Below are positions 9,392 through 62,175 of a stretch of DNA of 64,000 nt, piece by piece; the stretch's first letter is position 1; each line of letters opens with the position of its first letter. The notes under the pieces were generated by a model. That model made no database searches. It had not been told where the DNA came from and saw only the letters and a list, made by a program, of their open reading frames with translations. The DNA is from Patescibacteria group bacterium. GTDB taxonomy: Bacteria > Patescibacteriota > Dojkabacteria > JAHIVN01. Location of the stretch: positions 7,720 to 71,719 of the forward strand of contig JBDRHZ010000023.1 of assembly GCA_043816305.1 (NCBI GenBank). The letters are read 5' to 3'. The position numbers and the translations under genes are program-made.

Positions 9392-9466
9392 TTTGTTCGC
9401 TCTTTAGAAGGAATTTGCTTGTCTGTGTTTACCATTCTCAAACATAAATTGTCTGTTTTGAGTTTT

Positions 9467-9526
9467 CCAGCCAGAGGCTGGCTTGCCTGCCGATCAGCAT
9501 GGTCCCTGTCTGCGCAGGCAGGCGCC
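9467..9526. repeat. GC-rich hairpin element (CCAGCC-aga-GGCTGG, then GCCTGCC ...25 nt... GGCAGGC)
   Basis: Two stems can be read directly: 9467-9481, and 9485-9491 pairing with 9517-9523. It is strongly GC-rich against an AT-rich background and shares the CCTGCC/CCTGTC motif with 13827-13848 and 34934-34970. Confidence 0.6.
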
Positions 9527-9561
9527 TTTTGCGGAGAGTTTTGAGATATTAGTTACCTGTT

Positions 9562-9648: not shown

Positions 9649-9752
9649 GTGTTTGTTATCTCGAATGGTAGAGTAGTCCCGCTTTGCGGGATTGGTTGTG
9701 GGTTTCCGCCTTCGCTGAGGCTTCGTCGGACAGGCGAGTCTCACCGCCCTCA
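9649..9752 (+). pseudogene. Degenerate tRNA-like copy with a 30-nt GC-rich insertion in the T loop
   Basis: It retains AATGGTAGAG, TTGGTTGTGGGTT and CGAGTCTCACCGCCCTCA, which are co-linear with tRNA-Lys 35 nt upstream. The 5' acceptor strand cannot pair. The anticodon region forms a 6-bp/3-nt hairpin (TCCCGC-TTT-GCGGGA). Positions 9705-9734 (TCCGCCTTCGCTGAGGCTTCGTCGGACAGG) interrupt the T loop. Confidence 0.65.
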
Positions 9753-13680: not shown

Positions 13681-13809
13681 TTACTTCAGTTTCTTTCTCA
13701 AAAACACCGCAGTCAACCATATGAGGTTGAACACACCAATCCCAAGGGGACCGTAGCTTACAGCAAAAAGCACAAAAAGCAGTATGTAGATAACTATTAT
13801 TTTAGACAT
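13681..13809 (-). CDS. Possible 42-aa hydrophobic peptide (below the ORF-track size cutoff)
   Basis: Minus-strand ATG at 13807-13809 to TAA at 13681-13683: MSKIIVIYILLFVLFAVSYGPLGIGVFNLIWLTAVFLRKKLK. It has two hydrophobic segments and a basic tail. There is no homology support. Confidence 0.3.
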   Translation of the reverse strand: MSKIIVIYILLFVLFAVSYGPLGIGVFNLIWLTAVFLRKKLK

Positions 13810-13904
13810 AATCAGTAATCAGTATACCGCCGTGCCTGCCGGCAGGCAAGTAATCTGTAAACCTTAGACAGCAGCCGTTGATCTTAGTTCTTAAATCCTA
13901 ATCC
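13807..13904. repeat. Heptamer-phased degenerate tandem repeat enclosing a perfect 16-nt palindrome
   Basis: Read in 7-nt phase: CATAATC AGTAATC AGTATAC CGCCGTG CCTGCCG GCAGGCA AGTAATC TGTAAAC CTTAGAC AGCAGCC GTTGATC TTAGTTC TTAAATC CTAATCC. The palindrome TGCCTGCCGGCAGGCA lies at 13833-13848. Confidence 0.65.
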
Positions 13905-14099
13905 CAAATCAACTCGATCAATTTAATCATATCGATTACTTCGAGCATTATTCTCTTGCTTGATACTGTTGAGTATTTGTTGATCAAGTTAATCGGTCGT
14001 CACTTAGTTGTCCTCTGGTTAAACAGAAGGTTCCCGGTCTTTAGCTCAAGGCTCATGGCCCACGAGCACATTGGGCCATTAGCTCATTGGCTCACTAGC

Positions 14100-14864
14100 T
14101 CAACTATACTTCGCCAGCTTATCAAATGCCTGCACTGTGATACTCTTCTCCGCCCGATCTTTTTCTGTAAGACCGAGCTTTTTGGCCGCACCGAAAATTT
14201 CTCTGAGCGCTTTGTCTCTATCTTTAAATGTAGTTATTTCTATCTCAACGCCAGCCCCAAACCCTTTTATGTCATCTATGCAGACCTTGAAGTTTCCCAG
14301 TTTATAAACTATCCGATCCTTGTCGATAGTCAAAAATTCTTTTCTATCAAGTAATTCCAAAAGTCTTTCTGTACTTTCGGCCGAGTCAACATATATTTCG
14401 GCCTCTAAGAAAGTATTGTGGTTCATATCCTCTTTTGTAAGCCGTTTTGCTTCAAGACTGACAGTGATCTTTCCTGTATAGCCGTTGTCCTGCTCGCGGA
14501 TTCTAATTCCGCATCCGCGGTTTTTATCAAACCATTCTTCCTGCTGCTCAGCTGATTTTATCCTATTTGGTATATACCAATGGTCTATAATGTGGCCATG
14601 ATAGACTACTTTTGATCCAAGATTGATAAGTTTTTTCTCAAGCAAAGTTCTATTCTTCAATAAGTATCTAAGCTCTATTTCAATTCTGTCATTGTTCTGA
14701 ATCTGGGGAGATAAAAATAAATCCAGATCTTCCCTCTTTATCCTCACTACCCTGCCGATCTTGTGTGCCCGTAGATCCCCGCATTTAATGTGATTACGCA
14801 CTGTCTGCCAGTGAACCTGAAGAAGCTTTGCAGCCTCTTTGATTGTTAAAAGGGTATCACTCAT
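14100..14864 (-). CDS. Fusion protein: excisionase/MerR-type HTH DNA-binding domain plus CYTH (class IV adenylyl cyclase / triphosphate tunnel) domain
   Basis: The N-terminus LLTIKEAAKLLQVHWQTVRNHIKCGDLRAHKIGRVVRIKREDLDLFL is an excisionase-family HTH. It is followed by EIELRY (ExExK-type signature with R), GIRIRE..., and a C-terminal VCIDDIKGFGAGVEIEI typical of CyaB-like CYTH proteins. Confidence 0.75.
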   Translation of the reverse strand: MSDTLLTIKEAAKLLQVHWQTVRNHIKCGDLRAHKIGRVVRIKREDLDLFLSPQIQNNDRIEIELRYLLKNRTLLEKKLINLGSKVVYHGHIIDHWYIPNRIKSAEQQEEWFDKNRGCGIRIREQDNGYTGKITVSLEAKRLTKEDMNHNTFLEAEIYVDSAESTERLLELLDRKEFLTIDKDRIVYKLGNFKVCIDDIKGFGAGVEIEITTFKDRDKALREIFGAAKKLGLTEKDRAEKSITVQAFDKLAKYS

Positions 14865-21616: not shown

Positions 21617-22471
21617 ATGAACCCTTCAATTATTTTTGGACTTCTAGCTATGTTTGGCTGGGGAGTTGGAAATTTTACAACTGGTGTTCTTTCCAAAAAG
21701 GTTGATCCATTTAAACTTAGTTTTATAGTTCATACTTCAGCGCTCCCACTGACAGTTCTGCTTTTATTATTTTTTAAGTACAGCATCTCGATAGATTACT
21801 TTTTCCTGCTTAGTATCCTTGGTATAACAGCAAGTTCATCCTACTTCACCTTGTCCAAGTCACTTCAAACAGGAACCATATCTGTCATCAGTACGATCAT
21901 TCCCATCTGGGCAATTTTCACCTCAGTCTTAAGCTTCCTATTTCTGGAAGAGGAAATCTACGCCGAAAAGGTCCTTGGAATTTTGATCGTGATATCCGGC
22001 GTACTTCTAGTCTCGGCAGATTTTGAACAGATTAAGAAAAAAGCTGTCGTTCTGCATGCTGGTACTGCTTGGGCATTCTTGTCTGCATTTGTCATGGGCC
22101 TACACTCCTTTCTTGTCGCACTTTTTACACAGAAATTTGACTGGTTCTCGGTCACCCTTACCGGCCGTATATGGACATTCTTGGTGTTTCTCATCTTAGC
22201 CTTCTTCAGCAGAAAGAGACTGAAAAATTTCTTTATCAAAGTCCCCAAGTTGGTAATAGCACTGATACTCCTTGAGACAATAGTTATAGCTGTATTCAAT
22301 CGCGGCCTGGAACTAGGAGAGCCTTCTGTTGTAGCTACTATCGCTTCAGCCACACCGCTGGTTGCAGTTCCTCTCGCGTTCATCTTTTTCAAAGAGAAAC
22401 TGAAACTGTACCAGATATTTGGGATGCTGCTAAGTATCGTAGGAATTGGTTGCTTATCTTTCGGGGGTTGA
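21617..22471 (+). CDS. EamA/DMT-superfamily transporter
   Basis: 284 aa with about 10 hydrophobic helices and a duplicated EamA-like architecture (GLLAMFGWGVGNF..., ...IFGMLLSIVGIGCL). Confidence 0.75.
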   Translation: MNPSIIFGLLAMFGWGVGNFTTGVLSKKVDPFKLSFIVHTSALPLTVLLLLFFKYSISIDYFFLLSILGITASSSYFTLSKSLQTGTISVISTIIPIWAIFTSVLSFLFLEEEIYAEKVLGILIVISGVLLVSADFEQIKKKAVVLHAGTAWAFLSAFVMGLHSFLVALFTQKFDWFSVTLTGRIWTFLVFLILAFFSRKRLKNFFIKVPKLVIALILLETIVIAVFNRGLELGEPSVVATIASATPLVAVPLAFIFFKEKLKLYQIFGMLLSIVGIGCLSFGG

Positions 22472-22549
22472 CTTCATTAACTATGTAGATAAAAAAATAC
22501 TAATGCCCCAAAAGGGAAACATTAGTATTTTTCTTTTTTTGCATATTTA

Positions 22550-22720
22550 TTACTTTTTCTTTCTTCTTACCGTCTTTTTGGCAGCTTTTCTTTTTGTCTT
22601 TCTTACGGTCTTTTTTGCAACTTTCCTTTTTGCTTTTTTCGCGACTTTCTTAGCAGGCCTTCGCTTTACTGCTTTTTTTGCAGGTTTCCTTGCCTTTGAT
22701 TTTGCTTTTGCTCGGGGCAT
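22550..22720 (-). CDS. Lysine/alanine-rich histone H1-like basic protein (56 aa, missing from the ORF track)
   Basis: Minus-strand ATG at 22718-22720 to TAA at 22550-22552: MPRAKAKSKARKPAKKAVKRRPAKKVAKKAKRKVAKKTVRKTKRKAAKKTVRRKKK. The listed plus-strand ORF 22446-22733 is its phenylalanine-rich mirror image. Confidence 0.55.
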   Translation of the reverse strand: MPRAKAKSKARKPAKKAVKRRPAKKVAKKAKRKVAKKTVRKTKRKAAKKTVRRKKK

Positions 22721-23030
22721 TTTTTTAAATTAATAAATTAATACAATATCAATATACGCAAAAATTCAGAAAATGCAATAGGGTAAACATGCCGTAATGA
22801 AGGGGTTATCATTTGTTATATTTTGGAACTTTGCATAAATTTATAAAACAAAAAATAACTACGACCGATAAATACCTTGATAACAAAGCTATTTCGCTTC
22901 TTATATATTTACATTTATTGTATAATTTATCGATATAGTTTGGACACAAGTTCAAAACTGGAAATAGCTGGAACAAATTTTTATCGCCGATTGACAGCAC
23001 AATACTTGATTTCTTGAATGTAAAAATTTA

Positions 23031-27606: not shown

Positions 27607-28707
27607 CTAAACATCTCCCCGGCCTATCTCCCCGCTGCATACAACTACCTCCCCATCATACAACATCCCAAACTGTCCCTCAGTCACACCAAATGCTTTA
27701 TCCTTCAACTCTAATTCTAGCGAATTATCGTTCAGTTTCTTCACTTTTCCCATCACCCCTTTGTGAGGATGTCTGAGTTTGACCAAGTATTCTTTTCCCT
27801 CTTCCAGCAAATCGCCTGCGAGAACATTCAAAGACTTCAACACAACCGTGCCTGCTAGAAGATACTTGCTACTGCTACCCTTCGCAACGTAAACTATATT
27901 CTTTTCGACATCTTTCTTGGCTACATAATAAGGTTTCCCAGCTCCGCCAATTCCGAGGCCACTCCTTTGCCCGATCGTGAAAAACCAGTAGCCATCATGT
28001 TCGCCTACAACTCTTCCACTCTCTATATCTATAATTCCACCTTTCTTTTTCCCCATATATCTCTCAAGAAAATCATTGAAGCGAATTCTTCCTAAGAAAC
28101 AAAGCCCTTGACTATCGGGACGTGCGTGGGTTGGGAGACCTGCCTTCTTTGCGATATCACGAACTTCACTTTTCAACATATCCCCTATCGGAAACATCGC
28201 TTTAATCAGCTGTTTCTTTGTCATTCTGCTCAGAAAGTAAGTCTGGTCCTTCCAAGCATCCTTTGCTCTAAACAATCTATCAACAACCTGCTGCTTGCCC
28301 GACGAAGCCTCGGCGAAGTCGGGTTCGCTGTTCTTTAATCTCGCATAATGTCCCGTAGCTATTCTGTCATACTTTTTCCCATATTTTTCATCAAACACTC
28401 CAAACTTAATCAGCTGATTACACATTATGTCCGGATTCGGAGTTCTCCCCTCTTTCAGTGTTTTTAGCGTATACTCAACGATTGATTTCCAATATTCTTT
28501 TTGTAAATTGACTACTTTAAGAAGGACTTTCAGTTTATTAGTAACTGCCCGAGCATACTTCAGGTCTTCTTTCCACGGACAGACTTTGAAATCCTCCTCT
28601 AGCCAGATCTTGATATAATATGATGTAACGTCATACCCCTGCTTTTTCAAAAGGTATAATGCTACCGAGCTGTCAACACCACCTGAAGTGAGTACTGCGA
28701 TTTTCAT
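27607..28707 (-). CDS. mnmA: tRNA 2-thiouridine(34) synthase MnmA
   Basis: MKIAVLTSGGVDSSVAL (PP-loop SGGxDS), then ...ATGHYAR..., DQTYFL, ...DSQGLCF. The ATG at 28707 is preferred over the track start at 28806. Confidence 0.92.
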   Translation of the reverse strand: MKIAVLTSGGVDSSVALYLLKKQGYDVTSYYIKIWLEEDFKVCPWKEDLKYARAVTNKLKVLLKVVNLQKEYWKSIVEYTLKTLKEGRTPNPDIMCNQLIKFGVFDEKYGKKYDRIATGHYARLKNSEPDFAEASSGKQQVVDRLFRAKDAWKDQTYFLSRMTKKQLIKAMFPIGDMLKSEVRDIAKKAGLPTHARPDSQGLCFLGRIRFNDFLERYMGKKKGGIIDIESGRVVGEHDGYWFFTIGQRSGLGIGGAGKPYYVAKKDVEKNIVYVAKGSSSKYLLAGTVVLKSLNVLAGDLLEEGKEYLVKLRHPHKGVMGKVKKLNDNSLELELKDKAFGVTEGQFGMLYDGEVVVCSGEIGRGDV

Positions 28708-29237
28708 GATGGGGAAATTATAACACATGGGACGATTGTCAGACTCTTGGGAAACGTGATTAGCGGATTGCGCGTGCTTGATACCAGATCCCAGCCAAAC
28801 TATCAAATCTATGTACTACCTAAACTTTCTTGCTACATGAATTAGTCTCCAGTTACGTAATTCTTTTCCAAGTCAATAATACAATACCGGACGGAACCTA
28901 TCTAGCAAGGAATTTCTTGATTTTTGAAGTTTCGTTCAGCATCTTAAGTAAACTTATTTCAAAACCAAGTTTCTCGGTGGTTTCTGGGTCTATTTTTACA
29001 GCAATGATTTTACAATAGCCCACCTAGAGGATCAGTGTACTTAGATGTGAAATATCAGTCCTTGGCTCAGTAAAAATGTTGCATATTCAAAGTGTTTCTA
29101 GTGCGCAACATGTATGCAACCTGTACAACATCTTGATAATCTCCAAGTGGTGATGTAAACTGTTACTGCAAAGTTTTATATATTTAAAGTTGCTTACGGC
29201 CGATTTTAACTAAAAAGTTAATTTCGGATATAGTCTA

Positions 29238-31835
29238 ATGAAGGGTATAGTCCGCTTAATAATCCATACTATTCCTATATTCATATTTTTTGTGGTTGTG
29301 TTTCTGTTCTATGGAACGAAGAGTCGAGCCTTTGCAGTGTTACTTGATACTCCGGATGAGGATATCTGGATTACAAATGGAATAGTAAGAGCTTCGGTGG
29401 CCGGTAATGATGGTATAGTCTACATCGGCGGCTCTTTTAATTATATTGGGCCAAATACAGGGAATGGAGTACCTTTTGATATAACTAACGGTGACCCCGT
29501 ATCTAGCTATCCTAAAATTGATGGCTTTGTGCGTACAGCAGTTCCCGATGGTTCGGGTGGTTTTTATTTAGGAGGATCATTCAACTATGCGGGGGGGATG
29601 CCACGAAATCGTCTTGTTCACCTTTTTTCTGATGGAACAGTTGATTTAGCATGGAATCCAAATTCAAATGGTGATGTTTACTCTTTAGCCGTTAGTGGGT
29701 CGATTATATATGTAGGTGGAGAATTCACATCGATCGGTGGTCAAACACGAAACCGAATTGCTGCTGTCGACACTTCTACTGGAGCTGTTACAACATGGAA
29801 TCCAAACGCAAATAATAGAGTTTTTGAGTTGTCGATAAGTGACTCGATAGTGTATGCAGGAGGATTCTTTACTACAATAGGAGGGCAACCAAGAAATCGT
29901 ATTGCAGCCTTAGATGTTTCGACCGGAAATGCCACAACATGGAATCCAAATGCAAATAGTCATGTAAGTACTTTGACTGTTAGTGGTTCGACAGTGTATG
30001 TCGGAGGAGGCTTTACTACAATAGGCGGCCAGTCAAGAAACTTTTTAGCTGCCTTAGATACAACATCCGGTAATGCTACAGCGTGGAATCCGAATGCAAA
30101 TAGTCAAGTGAGCACTATAGCTGTTAGTGGTTCAATAGTGTACGTTGGGGGAAATTTTTCTACAGTAGGCGGCCAGTCAAGAAATTATTTAGCTGCCTTA
30201 GATGCAACATCCGGTAATGCTACAGCGTGGAATCCGAATGCAAATAATCAAGTGGGTATTATTGCTGTTGTTGGTTCGACAGTGTATGTCGGGGGAAACT
30301 TTACAACAATAGGAAGCCAGTCGCGTAGGTCTATTGCTTCTCTTGATTCAATTACAGGAATTGCGACTGCATGGAACCCTGAAACAAGCGGTGTTCCAAT
30401 GACTTTGGCTGTTAGTGGTTCTATGCTGTATGTAGGTGGCAACTTTGTTTCCATTGGTGGAAAAGCAAGAAGCAATCTTGCCGCATTTGATACTTATACG
30501 GGAGAGTTTACAGAATGGGATCCTGTTTCGTCTGGTGATGTTTATACACTCGTATTTGATGATTCTAAAGTATATATCGGTGGGGACTTTTTCAATATTG
30601 GAGGTCAGTCCCGTTACCGAATTGCTGCAGTAGAAACCCCTACTGGTACCGTAACAGCGTGGAATCCAAGTGCTAATAACAGTGTTTTTTCAATCGCAGT
30701 AAATGGTTCAACAGTATATGCAGGAGGAAACTTTACAACAATAGGCGGCCAGTCAAGAAATTATTTGGCTGCCTTAGATGCAACATCCGGCAATGCTACT
30801 GTGTGGGATCCGAACGCAAATAGCTGGGTCAATACTATAACTATCGATGGTTCAACAGTATACGCAGGAGGAAACTTTACAACAATAGGCGGTCAGTCAA
30901 GAAATTATTTGGCTGCCTTAGATGCAACATCCGGTAATGCTACTGCGTGGGATCCGAATGCAAATAGTTCAGTGACTAGCGTGGCTGTTAGTGATTCTAT
31001 GCTGTATGTATGTGGAGCTTTCAAAGCATTCCAAAATAATCTTCTTTATCGTCCTAGTTTTGCGAGATTCAACGATGATTCTACTGCACCAGTTATTTCG
31101 CTCACGGCTTTATCACCAGATCCAACAACCGATCTTAGTCCGACGTTCTGGGGTACGGCTACAGATGACTTAAATACAGTGACATTAGTTGAATTTCAAA
31201 TAGATAGTACTTCTGGCTCATGGACGACTTGTGTTTCTGACGATGGTACATTTGATGAAGCTTCGGAAATTTTTACTTGCGACGTTTCCGCTTTGACTGA
31301 TGGCAGTCATAAAATTTATGTTCGTGCTACCGATAGTACTGGTAATACTACAGGTTCCGGTAGTGAAGCAACGGATACATTTACTGTTGATACTACAGTA
31401 GAAGGGAAAACCATTTCAATAGGGGGAAAACTAATTGAAGAAGGTAAAGACAATGCGGAAATCGGAAATAAGAAACCCGAGTTCAGAGGAAGTGGAGAGC
31501 CAGAAGCATTGGTTACAATAGTACTAAGTGGAGATGGTATAGTGGTGATAGGAAGAACAGCAGTAGGAGAAGATGGAAGTTGGGCATGGAAACCGAATGA
31601 AGCTCTGCCTAACGGTGAATATACTGTCATTATTACTTATGAAGATAGAGTTGGTAATACAAGAGAGGAAAAGTTCACACTTATAATAAAAGCTGGATCT
31701 ATTGACACAACTGAAACTGAACTTGCTGATAGCGGGGGTAATAGTAGATATATGATAATATATGGACTAATCCTTATCACTTTTTCTCTAGGAATATATA
31801 GACAGGATACATCCGTGATAATGATTAAACTTTAA
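29238..31835 (+). CDS. Large surface protein: signal/TM peptide, about 12 x 48-aa beta-propeller repeats (DUF5122/delta-60-like), two Ig-like domains, C-terminal LADSG + TM + tail
   Basis: The repeat unit WNPNANxxVxxxAVSGSxVYVGGNFTTIGGQSRNYLAALDATSGNAT occurs ten times plus two divergent N-terminal units. It is followed by Ig-like segments (PTFWGTATDD...DGSHKIYVRATDSTGN; PEFRGSGEPEALVTIV...DGSWAWKP...LPNGEYTVIITYEDRVGN). The protein ends ELADSGGNSRYMIIYGLILITFSLGIYRQD. Confidence 0.8.
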   Translation: MKGIVRLIIHTIPIFIFFVVVFLFYGTKSRAFAVLLDTPDEDIWITNGIVRASVAGNDGIVYIGGSFNYIGPNTGNGVPFDITNGDPVSSYPKIDGFVRTAVPDGSGGFYLGGSFNYAGGMPRNRLVHLFSDGTVDLAWNPNSNGDVYSLAVSGSIIYVGGEFTSIGGQTRNRIAAVDTSTGAVTTWNPNANNRVFELSISDSIVYAGGFFTTIGGQPRNRIAALDVSTGNATTWNPNANSHVSTLTVSGSTVYVGGGFTTIGGQSRNFLAALDTTSGNATAWNPNANSQVSTIAVSGSIVYVGGNFSTVGGQSRNYLAALDATSGNATAWNPNANNQVGIIAVVGSTVYVGGNFTTIGSQSRRSIASLDSITGIATAWNPETSGVPMTLAVSGSMLYVGGNFVSIGGKARSNLAAFDTYTGEFTEWDPVSSGDVYTLVFDDSKVYIGGDFFNIGGQSRYRIAAVETPTGTVTAWNPSANNSVFSIAVNGSTVYAGGNFTTIGGQSRNYLAALDATSGNATVWDPNANSWVNTITIDGSTVYAGGNFTTIGGQSRNYLAALDATSGNATAWDPNANSSVTSVAVSDSMLYVCGAFKAFQNNLLYRPSFARFNDDSTAPVISLTALSPDPTTDLSPTFWGTATDDLNTVTLVEFQIDSTSGSWTTCVSDDGTFDEASEIFTCDVSALTDGSHKIYVRATDSTGNTTGSGSEATDTFTVDTTVEGKTISIGGKLIEEGKDNAEIGNKKPEFRGSGEPEALVTIVLSGDGIVVIGRTAVGEDGSWAWKPNEALPNGEYTVIITYEDRVGNTREEKFTLIIKAGSIDTTETELADSGGNSRYMIIYGLILITFSLGIYRQDTSVIMIKL
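29652..31070 (+). repeat. In-frame 144-nt tandem coding repeats inside the propeller gene
   Basis: Ten consecutive 48-codon units. Some units are near-identical at nucleotide level, for example GGCCAGTCAAGAAATTATTT[A/G]GCTGCCTTAGATGCAACATCCGG[T/C]AATGCTAC at about 30171, 30750 and 30891. Confidence 0.85.
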
Positions 31836-32531: not shown

Positions 32532-32603
32532 TATATCAGTTACACTAATCCATTCTCAACTATAGGACGGACAGAAAGTGATTGAAGTGCTCTGTGTAGT
32601 TAA

Positions 32604-32638
32604 GGCTTACGGGTTACGGAGTACGGTTACCGGCTACC
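32604..32638. repeat. Heptamer tandem repeat (5 units)
   Basis: GGCTTAC GGGTTAC GGAGTAC GGTTACC GGCTACC, in the gap between two minus-strand genes. Confidence 0.7.
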
Positions 32639-32642
32639 AGTT

Positions 32643-34517
32643 CTAATAATATGGATTATCCGGCACATCGTGTGAAGCCGGCTGTGCATGCACGAAATTC
32701 TTTGAGGACAGCTTCTTTATGACTCTTATGATCGAGTAAAAAACAATTATCACTAATATCAGAAAAAGAATGACTGGGATACCTAAAAACACAATTTTTC
32801 CATATACGTTTAGCTGGTCTATCTTTTCCAAAACCTTGTGCTTTGGTGTATATCTATACCGGTCAAGCAATGATGATAAATCTTCCACGTCCTCAAGTTC
32901 CAGCTCATCGATTATTTCTATCTGAAAAGTCGGAGGATCGAGTTTCATAGTATCGACAGAGTATTTTGTAATCGGGCTTGGCGTCTCGACGTCTATACTT
33001 GCAACCCGCCATAGAGCATGATCCAGATCTGAACCGATATAGTTTCTCCTCCCAGTATCACCCCAGGTCGGATCAACTGGAACCCAGCCAATATTTGGCA
33101 TGTAAACCTCGGTCCATTGATGACCTTCCTCAGTTTCTTCTTCGGCTCTAGGGTCAAAACCATATCCAAAAGCTGCTCTGGCTGGGATTCCCTGCGCGCG
33201 CAGCAGAGTTATCAAGAGATCAGAGTATTCCATACATACACTGCTACCGCCTTTCAAAGTTGCAAGCGCACCTTGCCGCTGGTTGTTTATACCAGTTTTC
33301 AGGTTATCATAGTCTACATTTTCAGTCACATAATTGTAGTCAGCAAGAACAATATCGTAGACATTCTTCATATCCCCTTTTAACTTTTCGGCTGTTGTTT
33401 GAATTTCTGAATCGTTTACTTCCCAGAAATTGGCTTGTTCCAGCAGATTTTCATATGATCTTTTCTCACCATCAGACTCAGAATAAACTTTGTCCAGATC
33501 AATATCGCTTATTGTCCCAACAGTCTTTTTATTGATTTCTTTTGTAATGCTCGTTACGATATAGCCTTCAACGGCAATCTCTGTCTCCTCCTCATTTGTA
33601 AATGAAAACCTAGCAACAACATTTCCTTCACTATCCTCTTTGACATACACAGGCGAAGGCATAATGGATTTGAAGTAGACTTTTTGATTACCGCCATCGC
33701 CCTCTCTAGGCAAAACCAGGTCATAAAAGACATTGAATATTTTTGACGATAGCTCTTTTGTTGCCCTAACGGGCTGAGTAATTCTAAATTTATAATACTG
33801 AAGGTCCCCTATCTGAACCCATGCAGAATTCTCTACTAGAGCGTCAACATCAAACTTGTAAACACTTCCGTCTTCAGTGTGAGAAGATGTGTGCTCAGAA
33901 GGAAGAACAAAATTTGGTTCATCAAATGATTTATCTAGTTCCAAAATTACTGAATAATGCGTTTTTGATGTTGCCCCAGAGTCATATGAGACAACATCAC
34001 TGTATCCTTTCGGAAGCCCTGGAACATAGATATTCCAAACATTTCCACTTCTGTTTACCAGCTCAAAGTTTTTGTATTCCAACACATATACATAATCTGT
34101 ACCTTTCACTACATTGGACTTGAATTTCGTAGTAAGCTCAATTTTCTTGTCATCTATTTTAATGTCATAGTCTAGTTTGTTGCCTGAAGGATCGGTTAAA
34201 GAAATTGTCTTTGCGACTTTCTTCAGATCTTCTTTTGAACTTTCGGACCTGGTTTTGAATGAAGATATGATAAACTTTTCAGATGAATCTCGCGGAATGT
34301 AATACTTGCTGGATGAATTCTCAATAGTTCTTATCTCCCTTATACTCATGATCCCCGAAGAATCGACCGAATAGGAAAGATCAATATTTGTAGTAAAATC
34401 TGCTGCTGACACAGATCCTGCTGGCAAAAAAGCATACATAACTACCACCAGCAAACAGGTAGACATAATCTTTATAAGGGAAAGTCTAATTTTTGATTCC
34501 AATAATTTCATTTCCAT
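32643..34517 (-). CDS. Transglutaminase-like (Cys-His-Asp) domain surface protein with signal peptide and C-terminal TM anchor
   Basis: GGSSVCMEYSDLLITLLRAQGIPARAAFGYGF ... EGHQWTEVYMPNIGWVPVDPTWG is the classical transglutaminase-core C/H/D arrangement. The N-terminal signal peptide ends VSA. C-terminal TM helix IVFLGIPVILFLILVIIVFY. Confidence 0.85.
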   Translation of the reverse strand: MEMKLLESKIRLSLIKIMSTCLLVVVMYAFLPAGSVSAADFTTNIDLSYSVDSSGIMSIREIRTIENSSSKYYIPRDSSEKFIISSFKTRSESSKEDLKKVAKTISLTDPSGNKLDYDIKIDDKKIELTTKFKSNVVKGTDYVYVLEYKNFELVNRSGNVWNIYVPGLPKGYSDVVSYDSGATSKTHYSVILELDKSFDEPNFVLPSEHTSSHTEDGSVYKFDVDALVENSAWVQIGDLQYYKFRITQPVRATKELSSKIFNVFYDLVLPREGDGGNQKVYFKSIMPSPVYVKEDSEGNVVARFSFTNEEETEIAVEGYIVTSITKEINKKTVGTISDIDLDKVYSESDGEKRSYENLLEQANFWEVNDSEIQTTAEKLKGDMKNVYDIVLADYNYVTENVDYDNLKTGINNQRQGALATLKGGSSVCMEYSDLLITLLRAQGIPARAAFGYGFDPRAEEETEEGHQWTEVYMPNIGWVPVDPTWGDTGRRNYIGSDLDHALWRVASIDVETPSPITKYSVDTMKLDPPTFQIEIIDELELEDVEDLSSLLDRYRYTPKHKVLEKIDQLNVYGKIVFLGIPVILFLILVIIVFYSIIRVIKKLSSKNFVHAQPASHDVPDNPYY

Positions 34518-34589
34518 GAAAATTTCACGGGCTAAGGAAAAAAATCTGCCTCCTTGACAAGATATCAGAGAATTATTTATATGACAAAT

Positions 34590-34829
34590 TTACTTTACAG
34601 GTTTAGGCCCTTCTACAGTGATAGGTTTCTGAGGAATGGGAATTTTTGGTTTGTTAATGGCTCTCACTATCAAATTCCCTACAACCCCGAACACTAAAAG
34701 TAAAACGCCGGTTATCACATACTCCGCCCACATAGGCAGGTCAAAAAAGAGGTATAACGGAAGTGAGAAAAAAACTGCCAAAAGTATCCCTAGGAAACAT
34801 CCAAATGTTTGAGCACTCTTGTCGTCCAT
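34590..34829 (-). CDS. Small two-TM membrane protein (hypothetical)
   Basis: 79-aa ORF with FGCFLGILLAVFFSLPLYLFF and VITGVLLLVFGVVGNLIV. Confidence 0.4.
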   Translation of the reverse strand: MDDKSAQTFGCFLGILLAVFFSLPLYLFFDLPMWAEYVITGVLLLVFGVVGNLIVRAINKPKIPIPQKPITVEGPKPVK

Positions 34830-34882
34830 TTTGTAAATAGAATAATAAGGATAATATATAATATTACGGAGAGAATAACAAG

Positions 34883-34975
34883 GTACGCAGATAGTAAACC
34901 GTAAGCCGTAGACTGTAATCCATATTTCGTAATCCGCCGTGCCCTGCCTGTCCTGGTCGTTAGGCCAGGGAACTA
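34883..34975. repeat. Heptamer-phased repeat followed by a GC-rich imperfect hairpin
   Basis: GTACGCA GATAGTA AACCGTA AGCCGTA GACTGTA ATCCATA TTTCGTA ATCCGCC, then GTGCCCTGCCTGTCCTGGTCGTTAGGCCAGGGAAC. It shares CCGCCGTGCC(C)TGCC with 13827-13840. Confidence 0.65.
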
Positions 34976-35116
34976 GTCGAGGTGTATTCCGTAAACAGTA
35001 GTCGGAATCTGTAGGACAGTAATAGGGATGAGTTAGAAGGTGACAGATAAAAGATAACGGATATCTGATATCTAAAATCCAGCAACTACTAAATATTATC
35101 CAAATCTCGTGATATG

Positions 35117-35125
35117 TGATAAAAT
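35117..35125 (+). promoter_or_regulatory. Candidate extended -10 element TGATAAAAT upstream of infB
   Basis: Identical 9-mer to 10707-10715 and 60382-60390, 19 nt before the infB ATG. Confidence 0.4.
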
Positions 35126-35144
35126 CTTAAGTCACATCTAAAAA

Positions 35145-36722
35145 ATGACAAAAAAGAAAGAAACCAAAAAAGAATATAATCTTGTCAGGCCACCAGTAGT
35201 AACGTTTCTGGGACACGTAGATCATGGCAAAACTTCAATTCTTGATGCCATCCGAGGGACAAGGCTTCAGGTATGTGAAGCTGGTGGCATCACGCAAAAT
35301 ATTCGTGCTCATCAGATAGAATACAAAGCAAAGACAGGAACAGCATACAAGATAACTTTCATAGATACCCCGGGACACGAGGCATTCTCAGAAATGCGAT
35401 CGCGAGGAGCAAATGTCACCGATATTGTTGTACTTGTCGTTGCTGTTGATGACGGCGTCAAGCCTCAAACAAAAGAAGCTATTTCATTTGCAAAAGAATC
35501 CAAGGTCCCAATTATTGTTGCTATAAACAAAGTAGACTTGAAGGGTCATGACCTAGCAAAGATAAAAAGAGAACTTTCAACTGCAGGTGTACAGGCAGAA
35601 GACCTGGGAGGTAATGTAATGTTTGTTAAAGTTTCCGCAAAGAAAAAAACCGGACTGGATCAGCTAATTGAAACAATACTGCTTGTCGCCGAAATGCAGG
35701 AATTAAAAATGCAAAAGCCTAAAGAAGGTATTGCTGAAGCGGTCGTTCTAGAATCAACTACAGACAAATCACAAGGACCAATCAGCCTTTGTCTTGTCAA
35801 GTCTGGGGAAATAAGCATCGGAAATTATGTGGGGTGGGAAGATAAATGTGCGACGATAAGAGCCCTCAAGAATGAAACTTTCTGCAGTCAGGAGAAAGCT
35901 CAAGTGTCTGATCCTGTGTGGATATCCGGCTTTCAAAAAGAAATCCCTATAGGCGTCAAACTTGTTTTTTATCCAAACCAATCAGATGTTAAAGCGATAA
36001 AGAATGAGGCCAGTGAAACTCCGGATGAAGAGAAAGAACTAAGCGAAGTACTGGATGAAGATATCCTGTCGCAACTGCTTGAGGCAAAAACTGATGAAGA
36101 CGACATAATAGAACTAAACATTGTTATAAAATCAGAAAGCCAGGGAACTCTTGAAGTTGCACTCAAAGAGCTGCAAAAGGTTTCCTCAGATGACGTTGCG
36201 ATTAAAATTCTCCACTCAGGAACAGGCGAAATTACAGAAGATGACATCCTGAAGGCAAAGAACGCTAAAGGAATAGTGATAGGATTCAAATCAAAAATTG
36301 CAAGTAAAAATCAGAAAATTGCAAAACAAGAAAAGGTATTGGTCAGGAATTATGAAATCATTTACGAGTTAATCGATGAAGTAGCTGACGTTTTAGAAAG
36401 CATGAAAGAACCTGTAGAAATTGAGGTTGAGATAGCTAGAGCAAAGGTCCTCAAAACATTTGAACTTTCAAACGGATCTATGATTGCAGGCTGTAAAGTT
36501 TTGAAAGGTACAATTCTAAAGGGCTACCGCTGCTATGCAGAAAGGTTATCGGATAAAGAAAAAGCTCGTGTTGGAGAAGGGAAAATTACTTCCATAAGAC
36601 ATAATAAAGATGAAGTGAAGGAAACTCATAAAGGCTCAGAATGCGGGATTTTGCTTGAGCCACAAATTGACCTCGAAAAAGATGACGAGATAGTTTGTTT
36701 TAAAATTGAAAAATCTCAATAG
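35145..36722 (+). CDS. infB: Translation initiation factor IF-2 (short form; the G domain starts at about residue 15)
   Basis: [23 protein letters not shown] (G1), DTPGHEAF (G3), NKVD (G4), then the C-terminal beta-barrel domains. Only 525 aa. Confidence 0.93.
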
Positions 36723-48608: not shown

Positions 48609-48688
48609 TTATTCTAACAAACGGCTTTTCCGATACAAAAGTATTTGCTTTATATTCAATACTTCCCTAAAATCGTATTTATACCTAC

Positions 48689-48777
48689 TCAAAAACAAAG
48701 TTTCGGACTTTTATTTTTTTAGTACTTACAGAATTTGTTTTATCGTCAAGTATAAGTCAAACTTGCAAAACAAAATT
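48689..48777 (+). repeat. Dispersed intergenic repeat, copy B (related to 2838-2910)
   Basis: TCAAAAACAAAGTTTCG...(25-nt spacer)...GAATTTGTTTTATCGTCAAGTATAAGTCAAACTTGCAAAACAAAATT. It ends 51 nt before the GTG start at 48829. Confidence 0.8.
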
Positions 48778-61867: not shown

Positions 61868-61897
61868 AAAAAGCCCTGTACAAGTTACAGGGTTTTT
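61868..61897 (+). terminator. Rho-independent terminator of hup
   Basis: AAAAAG-CCCTGTA-CAAGT-TACAGGG-TTTTT: a 7-bp G/C-containing stem, a 5-nt loop and a T5 tract, 23 nt after the stop codon. Confidence 0.8.
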
Positions 61898-62044
61898 ACT
61901 TTGTATCCAAGTTTGTATTTAGCTTGTTGAAAATAAGAAGCAATTCTCAGATTCCGTTGACCCAAAAATGATCAAGTTGATTGAGATGATTACTCTTAGG
62001 TAAACTCGGGGCATGCGTCTTACATTTCACCAACCACTGTAGAC

Positions 62045-62121
62045 TGAATACTGATGGCTGATACCAGTTCCCGGTTACCAGATATCGGTTACCTGCTACC
62101 AGTTACCTGTTACTTCCTATT
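62045..62121. repeat. Heptamer tandem repeat (11 units, consensus NGNTACC)
   Basis: TGAATAC TGATGGC TGATACC AGTTCCC GGTTACC AGATATC GGTTACC TGCTACC AGTTACC TGTTACT TCCTATT, intergenic between hup and the GT2 gene. Confidence 0.75.
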
Positions 62122-62175
62122 CCTCAAATCACCTGAATCGGCTATAATACTTCCGCTTACATTTTCGAGTTTGTA

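Follow-up and report, generated by a model that had tools for sequence, protein, structure and literature searches.

Heptanucleotide-phased repeat arrays in the intergenic DNA of a Dojkabacteria genome

Heptamer arrays at four intergenic loci

Eleven heptamers follow one another in phase just upstream of a glycosyltransferase operon in a Dojkabacteria genome, which raises the question of whether such a row exceeds chance and what could have produced it. The 64,000-nt stretch of DNA analyzed here (the window; it matches contigs of GCA_018816645.1) was originally predicted to hold phased, degenerate and exclusively intergenic heptamer repeats at several places, with an excess of period-7 signal over shuffled intergenic DNA as the test. 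This excess is present. A score of 24 or more period-7 matches was reached by 130 windows of 42 nt, whereas 100 local dinucleotide shuffles gave 4.5 on average and never more than 46; when periods 2-15 were scanned, only the harmonic 14 stood out besides 7. Pooled intergenic DNA of the window (8.1 kb) gave z scores of 5.5 at lag 7, 2.3 at lag 14 and 2.5 at lag 21, while coding DNA gave -3.7 at lag 7 and showed only a 3-nt rhythm; phasing and intergenic restriction both hold statistically. Counted as arrays, four were intergenic and one was coding, vs. 1.0 expected.

Three further assemblies from this population have exactly these arrays while carrying SNPs elsewhere relative to the window, and the arrays are therefore not assembly artifacts; no difference in array length and no indel was found among these four near-identical assemblies. 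In the strain comparison, L013 and L014 were identical to each other. The heptanucleotide-phased arrays are thus confirmed as a real observation, and all of the predicted blocks were recovered where they had been placed.

Array A (62037-62113, plus strand) consists of 11 in-phase heptamers with the consensus C-N-G-T-T-A-C and a 14-nt higher-order unit. Read from 62037, its register is CTGTAGA CTGAATA CTGATGG CTGATAC CAGTTCC CGGTTAC CAGATAT CGGTTAC CTGCTAC CAGTTAC CTGTTAC, in which C1 and G3 are invariant in 11 of 11 units and no perfect tandem run of two or more units occurs. Tandem Repeats Finder (TRF) reported 62062-62113 at period 7 (7.4 copies, 68% matches) and at period 14 (78%). The mean Hamming distance between units was 2.2-2.3 at a distance of 1-2 units vs. 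3.0-3.4 at a distance of 4-6. Array B (32604-32638, plus strand) has five units, GGCTTAC GGGTTAC GGAGTAC GGTTAC-C GGCTACC, with a single 1-nt phase slip.

Locus C proved bigger than first described, with degenerate heptamers running from 34883 to approximately 35095, split by a 63-nt GC-rich segment. On its left, array C1 (34883-34933, minus strand) is made of GTA-phased heptamers that read GGATTAC .. AGTCTAC GGCTTAC GGTTTAC on the minus strand; on its right, the C2 arrays (34997-35095, plus strand) add more heptamers, likewise degenerate, and include CAGATAA AAGATAA CGGATAT CTGATAT (35044-35071). The best period-7 window of the whole 64 kb, at 35031, belongs to this locus. Array D is likewise in two parts, CATAATC AGTAATC AGTATAC on the left (13807-13826, plus strand) and CTTAGAC AGCAGCC GTTGATC TTAGTTC TTAAATC CTAATCC on the right (13863-13904, plus strand), the units of the right part ending in A/T-C. 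TRF picked up only the best parts of the arrays, namely 13809-13824 within locus D and the segment of array A given above. Identity of units to their consensus is about 60-80% in these arrays, with values of 0.63-0.77, below the perfect or near-perfect identity of published definitions of long simple sequence repeats (LSSR).

A fifth, TGAGCYA-type block (14042-14110, no strand assigned), which had been described as a weak heptamer array, begins with three 7-nt units as predicted and continues in 8-nt units with a hairpin; its TRF call (14051-14102) has periods 8 and 16, not 7. The block, which overlaps a stop codon, lies at the 3′ end of HTH-CYTH.

Unit sequences had been said to differ between loci. 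After orienting and rotating, however, the four main loci form one family with the common, near-palindromic unit C-N-G-(T/A)-T-A-(C/T), or CNGWTAY. A four-unit motif score of at least 18 of 24 was reached at 27 positions, vs. 3.8 in the null (maximum 9), and all strong positions fall inside the predicted loci. The unit is almost its own reverse complement (GGTTACC/GGTAACC); after rotation, therefore, array orientation relative to genes cannot be safely assigned, and an apparent bias relative to downstream genes (seemingly three of four) was dropped as evidence.

Loci C and D also share a GC-rich composite element. Copy 1 (13827-13862, plus strand) comprises CCGCCGTGCC-TGCCGGCAGGC, with a 14-nt perfect palindrome GCCTGCCGGCAGGC, followed by GTAATCTGTAAAC. 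As predicted, its GC part is exactly 21 nt long (CGCCGTG CCTGCCG GCAGGCA), and the heptamer phase of array D is therefore kept across it. Copy 2 (34934-34996, plus strand) reads CCGCCGTGCC ... hairpin CCTGG/CCAGG ... GTATTCCGTAAAC and sits within the locus C heptamers, shifting their phase by 1. Both copies have CCGCCGTGCC as left border and GTAWTCYGTAAAC as right border. The left-border pattern CCGCCGTGCCTGCC, with up to three mismatches, had 5 matches vs. 0.86 expected, and the right border 2 vs. 0.34. The composite occurs twice in the 64-kb window and was not found in 93 loci from other genomes; each of the 10-13-mers tested from GC-rich elements occurred in only one other genome or in none. 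In another genome, GCCTGCCGGC adjoins three copies of TAGATTG. Since loci C and D share the composite, some of the array spread may be due to duplication or transposition and not to local slippage, and a duplication or the insertion of a tiny element may relate the arrays at C and D to each other.

Other repeated or GC-rich sequences were observed in the window. A GC-rich multi-hairpin segment at 9466-9535, just upstream of tRNA-Lys, has a counterpart at 4016-4066 of L017. Its 25-nt core, CCCTGTCTGCGCAGGCAGGCGCCTT, is identical in the two genomes, whose orthologous proteins are only ~56% identical, and its first hairpin shows a compensatory change (CCAGCC/GGCTGG vs. CCCGCC/GGCGGG). The L017 copy has heptamer arrays on both sides. 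Rfam gave no match to the segment, which is a candidate conserved small RNA or small mobile element. At 9650-9750 lies a tRNA-Lys-like copy, called by neither ARAGORN nor Rfam, in which the anticodon arm is replaced by CCCGCTTTGCGGG and the T arm carries a 30-nt GC-rich insert, TCCGCCTTCGCTGAGGCTTCGTCGGACAGGC; this 30-mer recurs, inverted and at 87%, at 28293-28322 inside ORF 27607-28806. A 61-nt inverted repeat pair (2823-2883/48732-48792) is 82% complementary across 46 kb, with a second pair nearby (2894-2919 and 48680-48705), and could represent a shared promoter, leader or small-RNA sequence. Within an 865-aa ORF (29238-31835) with Big_13/DUF5122-type matches, 29696-31003 holds eight tandem copies of a 144-nt (48-aa) repeat, just inside which the NCBI and ENA contigs break. 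A 36-nt tandem repeat (22564-22636; 2.1 copies, 86% matches) occupies a T-rich stretch of the doubtful ORF 22446-22733.

Genomic surroundings and distribution among relatives

Array A is located between the HU gene and the GT2-PMT operon. An intrinsic terminator-like hairpin of the HU gene (61869-61897, plus strand) lies 140 nt upstream of the array, and directly downstream of it is a block consisting of CTATTCCTCAAAT ... TATAAT (62117-62148, plus strand; TATAAT at 62143-62148). The hairpin and the block are conserved in L091 and L092, whereas the array region is not. We infer that the block acts as the operon promoter, although a consensus promoter scan gave no match there. The array ends 63 nt before the start codon. 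As it lies downstream of the terminator and upstream of the conserved -10, it is probably not part of the GT2 mRNA.

Array B has the transglutaminase stop codon on one side and, on the other, a strong promoter-like site belonging to a 116-aa gene. Locus C occupies a 315-nt gap between a 79-aa gene (34590-34829, minus strand), conserved in L012, and a short IF-2 gene. The 79-aa gene has a promoter-like site whose -35 adjoins array C1, and the C2 units at 35044-35071 lie 50-85 nt upstream of the IF-2 start codon (35145). Array D, between the DUF1003 and HTH-CYTH genes, is like array B farther from start codons than A or C2. A replication origin or DnaA boxes at locus C were considered and dropped, as GC skew does not turn there.

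Comparison of 32532-35144 with L012 and L005 showed that arrays B and C flank the pair formed by the 79-aa and transglutaminase genes. The nearest species has other genes on both sides of this pair, which places the two arrays at synteny breakpoints. The IF-2 gene itself (35145-36722 in the window) encodes 525-536 aa in all Dojkabacteria loci seen (the window, L013, L015, L016 and L017), where the protein has no N-terminal extension and its gene stands alone, not after nusA; the spacer upstream of it is 115 nt long in L016 and measures 285-675 nt in the other four of the five genomes.

The nearest species representative is Candidatus Dojkabacteria MAG STE_192 (GCA_028696515.1), with 71% (GT2) and 80% (IF-2) amino-acid identity to the window proteins. 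Its HU-GT2 spacer is fully syntenic (DnaG, Mg-chelatase-like, deformylase, HU, GT2, PMT), and an alignment of the spacer showed conservation of the HU terminator and of CTATTCCTCAAAT ... TATAAT through to the start codon. The segment that corresponds to array A is diverged, 22 nt shorter and aperiodic. No true arrays were found in the 29 kb sampled from STE_192. A period-7 match at 6120 of L091 was ruled out as an array, since it is a T-rich coding stretch.

Among other relatives, lag-7 z scores for intergenic DNA were 10.0 in L016, 6.9 in L017, 0.9 in L015 and -1.7 in L005. L016 (GCA_054919855.1) has 15 intergenic arrays totaling 945 nt in 22 kb, vs. 0.5 arrays in shuffles; they make up roughly a quarter of the ~3.8 kb of intergenic DNA sampled. 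L017 has seven intergenic arrays in 22 kb and four more in coding DNA, L013 (GCA_016932045.1) has fewer arrays than either, and none were found in L015 (30% GC). In 72 metagenome loci (726 kb) selected for the same transglutaminase family as the window, 29 period-7 arrays were counted vs. 8.6 expected, clustered in ~6 contigs. One array was found outside Dojkabacteria, in a Saccharibacteria locus. In the Saccharibacteria locus L006 (1-80), two direct copies of a 22-nt hairpin unit, TCTGTAGAACCTCGGAGGTTCT, were observed ~200 nt from a GAATYAA heptamer array. The trait is genome-specific, sporadic and patchy among relatives.

Units in the other Dojkabacteria and metagenome loci include TAGATTG, AGAATTT, GGTCAAA, ATAAGCT, TTGAGCT, GTAGG-type, TAGAACA and ACTTGAT, and several different arrays are often concatenated. 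Perfect runs occur beside decayed copies (TAGATTG x3, TAGAACA x4, ACTTGAT x4). No type of spacer was free of arrays: they follow stop codons, precede start codons, lie in convergent as well as divergent gaps, and often begin at a stop or start codon. An array lies upstream of IF-2 in four genomes; in L016 it is made of NNGCTGA units 29 nt upstream. The constant feature across genomes is the period of 7 and not a particular sequence. Units nevertheless recur between genomes, with 9 identical pairs vs. 2.5 and 74 pairs within one mismatch vs. 43.9, relative to composition-matched shuffles that ignore dinucleotide bias.

Coding arrays were found in ArgRS of three genomes, where they are in frame in a variable-length loop and a second segment and leave the protein intact. 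They occupy the same two places in L013 (14041-14301), L016 (15490-15828) and L017 (13852-14088), with differing units (CAATCTA, CCATCAG, CTATCGC) that encode similar loop sequences, in a loop of 15 to 48 residues. A comparison of four Dojkabacteria likewise showed variation in loop length. The heptamers and GC block of the L013 gene were considered as an insertion; none is clear, as solved ArgRS structures have a variable loop of similar length.

Origin and possible roles of the arrays

We consider it probable that the arrays are spacer DNA born by slippage and turning over rapidly, specific to some Dojkabacteria genomes and STRR/LSSR-like in kind. A 7-nt unit, at times a 14-nt double and occasionally 6 or 8 nt, would be duplicated locally in non-essential spacer by replication slippage or unequal exchange; copies would diverge by point mutation, and variant units would be amplified again. 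The outcome would be lineage-specific filler between terminators and promoters, and in relatives also inside tolerant protein loops, with arrays that would not constitute a conserved sequence-specific signal. The greater similarity of adjacent units, the better fit at 14 nt and the perfect triplets and quadruplets in relatives are marks of stepwise local duplication followed by decay. It is from these marks, from the lack of conservation in the nearest species and from the patchy distribution that we infer slippage as the generating process, as well as neutrality.

Some observations do not fit a purely neutral picture. One unit common to four arrays and an invariant C1 and G3 in array A are not predicted by purely neutral decay of independent arrays, and units recur between genomes, arrays stand upstream of IF-2 in four genomes and arrays A and C1 are at -35 regions. 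No copy-number polymorphism was seen among the near-identical assemblies, so that ongoing slippage is at most a candidate process. A regulatory reading draws on the shared unit, the invariant positions, the recurring units and the -35 regions; in it, CNGWTAY heptamers would be cis-acting binding sites for a DNA-binding protein near promoters, or for an RNA-binding protein in leaders as proposed for the TAACTGA repeats of Beggiatoaceae (PMC4679880), and tune GT2-PMT, the 79-aa gene, IF-2 and DUF1003. It can also point to the motif-array score above null and to the TAACGGA/TATCTGA-like units that lie forward upstream of IF-2 in the window, much as the NNGCTGA units of L016 precede the IF-2 gene of that genome. 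Yet the promoter is conserved in the orthologous spacer of the nearest species and the array is not; units differ widely between and within sister genomes; arrays also occupy convergent gaps without a promoter and coding loops; and a 7-bp period does not put sites on one face of the DNA helix. With array A probably outside the GT2 mRNA and orientation ambiguous in a unit that nearly equals its own reverse complement, cis-regulation of these genes seems unlikely to be the explanation. A further reading, to which we give slightly less credence still, is that in a subset of Dojkabacteria intergenic DNA is largely built by a dedicated 7-nt-stepping process with a restricted, shared heptamer repertoire, some arrays having been co-opted as regulatory sites. 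Behind such a process might stand pared-down replication and repair machinery or a tiny mobile element, and the arrays upstream of IF-2 in four genomes or beside -35 boxes would be the candidates for co-option.

A mobile element could also act by itself, if GC-rich hairpin blocks with heptamer flanks formed a miniature dispersed element that either spreads heptamer-rich DNA or enters it. The borders shared by loci C and D above expectation, the exact 21-nt length and preserved phase of the GC block in D, and the placement of GCCTGCCGGC beside TAGATTG repeats in another genome are consistent with this, as are the different 30-nt GC-rich block present in both a tRNA-like sequence and an ORF and the 25-mer identical in the window and L017, where arrays flank it. 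Arrays A and B have no GC-rich block, however, the composite is limited to its two copies in the window, and neither a transposase nor terminal inverted repeats are associated with it. Mobility would explain the spread of some arrays and not why the period is 7, and as an overall account it is rather improbable. Phase variation is far less probable. Repeats of 7 bp in the hmw promoters of Haemophilus influenzae are said to act by phase variation, and array A, which immediately precedes the promoter of an operon for a glycosyltransferase and a protein mannosyltransferase, might by its copy number switch or tune surface glycosylation, as heptanucleotides are not multiples of 3 and can alter promoter geometry; SSRs in H. 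influenzae are covered in PMC2651432. A contingency locus has a perfect tract of varying copy number, whereas the units of array A are degenerate (68% matches) with no perfect run of at least two, so that slippage should be rare, and they are identical in all assemblies compared, with no length differences among the four that carry SNPs elsewhere. Housekeeping genes, IF-2 among them, have the other arrays beside them. A role as structured non-coding RNA or as terminators is equally hard to credit. The fifth block (14035-14110), at a gene 3′ end, folds significantly better than shuffles (z = -2.5 and -2.3) and GC-rich hairpins occur within loci C and D, but for arrays A-D neither strand surpassed its shuffles in folding (z from -1.3 to +1.3), and these arrays contain no terminator-like sites. 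Rfam matched no array, either at gathering scores over the whole window, the only Rfam coverage of loci A and B, or at E ≤ 1 in three array-bearing or GC-rich regions that include loci C and D; its overall yield was two tRNAs and a chance YrlA match. For arrays A-D this reading is largely refuted, and with array A upstream of a conserved promoter the terminator or UTR roles first suggested for the arrays find no support.

Arrays of this kind are notable in CPR genomes, which are tiny, with short spacers and minimal sets of replication and repair genes; they account for about a quarter of the sampled intergenic DNA of L016. Comparison with close relatives that lack arrays offers a compact way to ask which genes accompany 7-nt slippage. 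On the reading of a dedicated stepping process, sister genomes that have arrays and others that lack them could allow the long-noted bacterial preference for 7 nt to be pinned to a gene difference. As a practical warning, a long "intergenic" region in a CPR MAG may consist of repeat filler and not of hidden genes or RNAs.

Comparison with known heptamer repeats

To our knowledge, neither the origin nor the function of bacterial heptanucleotide repeats is known. The arrays agree with LSSR- and STRR-like repeats in having 7-nt head-to-tail units beyond chance at several dispersed, preferentially intergenic loci. The best match in kind is the one originally proposed, the STRR repeats of heterocystous cyanobacteria (Calothrix, Anabaena, Nostoc), which likewise are tandem 7-nt units at many dispersed, mainly intergenic loci, with several unit families per genome and no established function; the reading of the arrays as phased intergenic heptamers analogous to STRR is thus supported. 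Unlike STRR, the arrays are short (5-14 units) and much more degenerate, and they belong to a CPR bacterium, whose genome is small. The units of STRR1-3 are CCCCAGT, TTGGTCA and CAACAGT. Within one mismatch, these gave 0, 2 and 0 arrays, respectively, vs. nulls of 0.24, 1.07 and 0.96. Membership in STRR1-3 was rejected, as TTGGTCA was at chance and no CCCCAGT or CAACAGT array was found within one mismatch.

Small dispersed repeats of 21-27 nt reportedly lie within Nostoc heptamer repeats, as Elhai is said to have described in 2008. They resemble the 21-nt GC-rich hairpin block that sits in phase inside array D, with a related block in a second array; the putative element in the window differs in having two copies only and unrelated sequences.

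A second comparison is with the TAACTGA direct repeats that MacGregor 2015 (PMC4679880) reported for marine Beggiatoaceae, for some cyanobacteria and for Bacteroidetes. Once reverse-complemented and rotated, TAACTGA differs from CAGTTAC and CAGTTAT by no more than one mismatch, and both kinds of repeat are intergenic and mixed with other heptamer repeats in long spacers. Close relatives such as Gramella and Aequorivita lack TAACTGA repeats despite the same gene order (PMC4679880), much as the array is missing from the syntenic STE_192 spacer. The TAACTGA repeats of BOGUAY, however, are exact, forward and a few nt upstream of start codons, a placement not seen in arrays A-D; array A is upstream of a promoter and orientation is ambiguous. 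TAACTGA within one mismatch was found in 5 of 51 arrays vs. 2.4 (maximum 7) in a composition-matched null, a resemblance not above null, and the window has only one-mismatch variants, the exact consensus occurring only in L045. Membership in this family was rejected as well. With the TAACTGA and STRR tests negative, the arrays are not filed under either named sequence family.

According to PMC4679880 and PMC4692102, heptameric SSRs are over-represented in many bacteria and, in Nostoc and Xanthomonas, in DNA between genes. Long simple sequence repeats with 5-11-nt units, including GGGAATC of Xanthomonas, were described by Mrazek 2007, as summarized in PMC4679880 and PMC4692102. According to these summaries, heptanucleotides have been noted since 2007 as a favored class of longer simple repeats in bacteria, and LSSR vary extensively between close relatives, with polymerase slippage proposed as their origin. 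The arrays share with LSSR the preferred unit length of seven, the intergenic over-representation and the sporadic phylogeny, and a sporadic, genome-specific trait agrees with the descriptions of bacterial long simple repeats given in PMC4679880. LSSR are defined on perfect or near-perfect repeats, whereas the arrays here are decayed. G-rich units of the GGGAATC kind were not matched in the arrays, and as the arrays are not G-rich they cannot form quadruplexes.

In full-text searches, nothing on repeats of this kind turned up for Dojkabacteria, CPR or Patescibacteria, in line with the original statement that no description was known in such a genome. Should the arrays be nothing more than neutral filler, they would extend a known phenomenon modestly, by one new phylum; the finding gains if array-rich and array-free sister genomes, set against each other, help to explain why bacteria favor seven. 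What is new is the host lineage, while the kind of repeat is already known from cyanobacteria, Xanthomonas and Beggiatoa.
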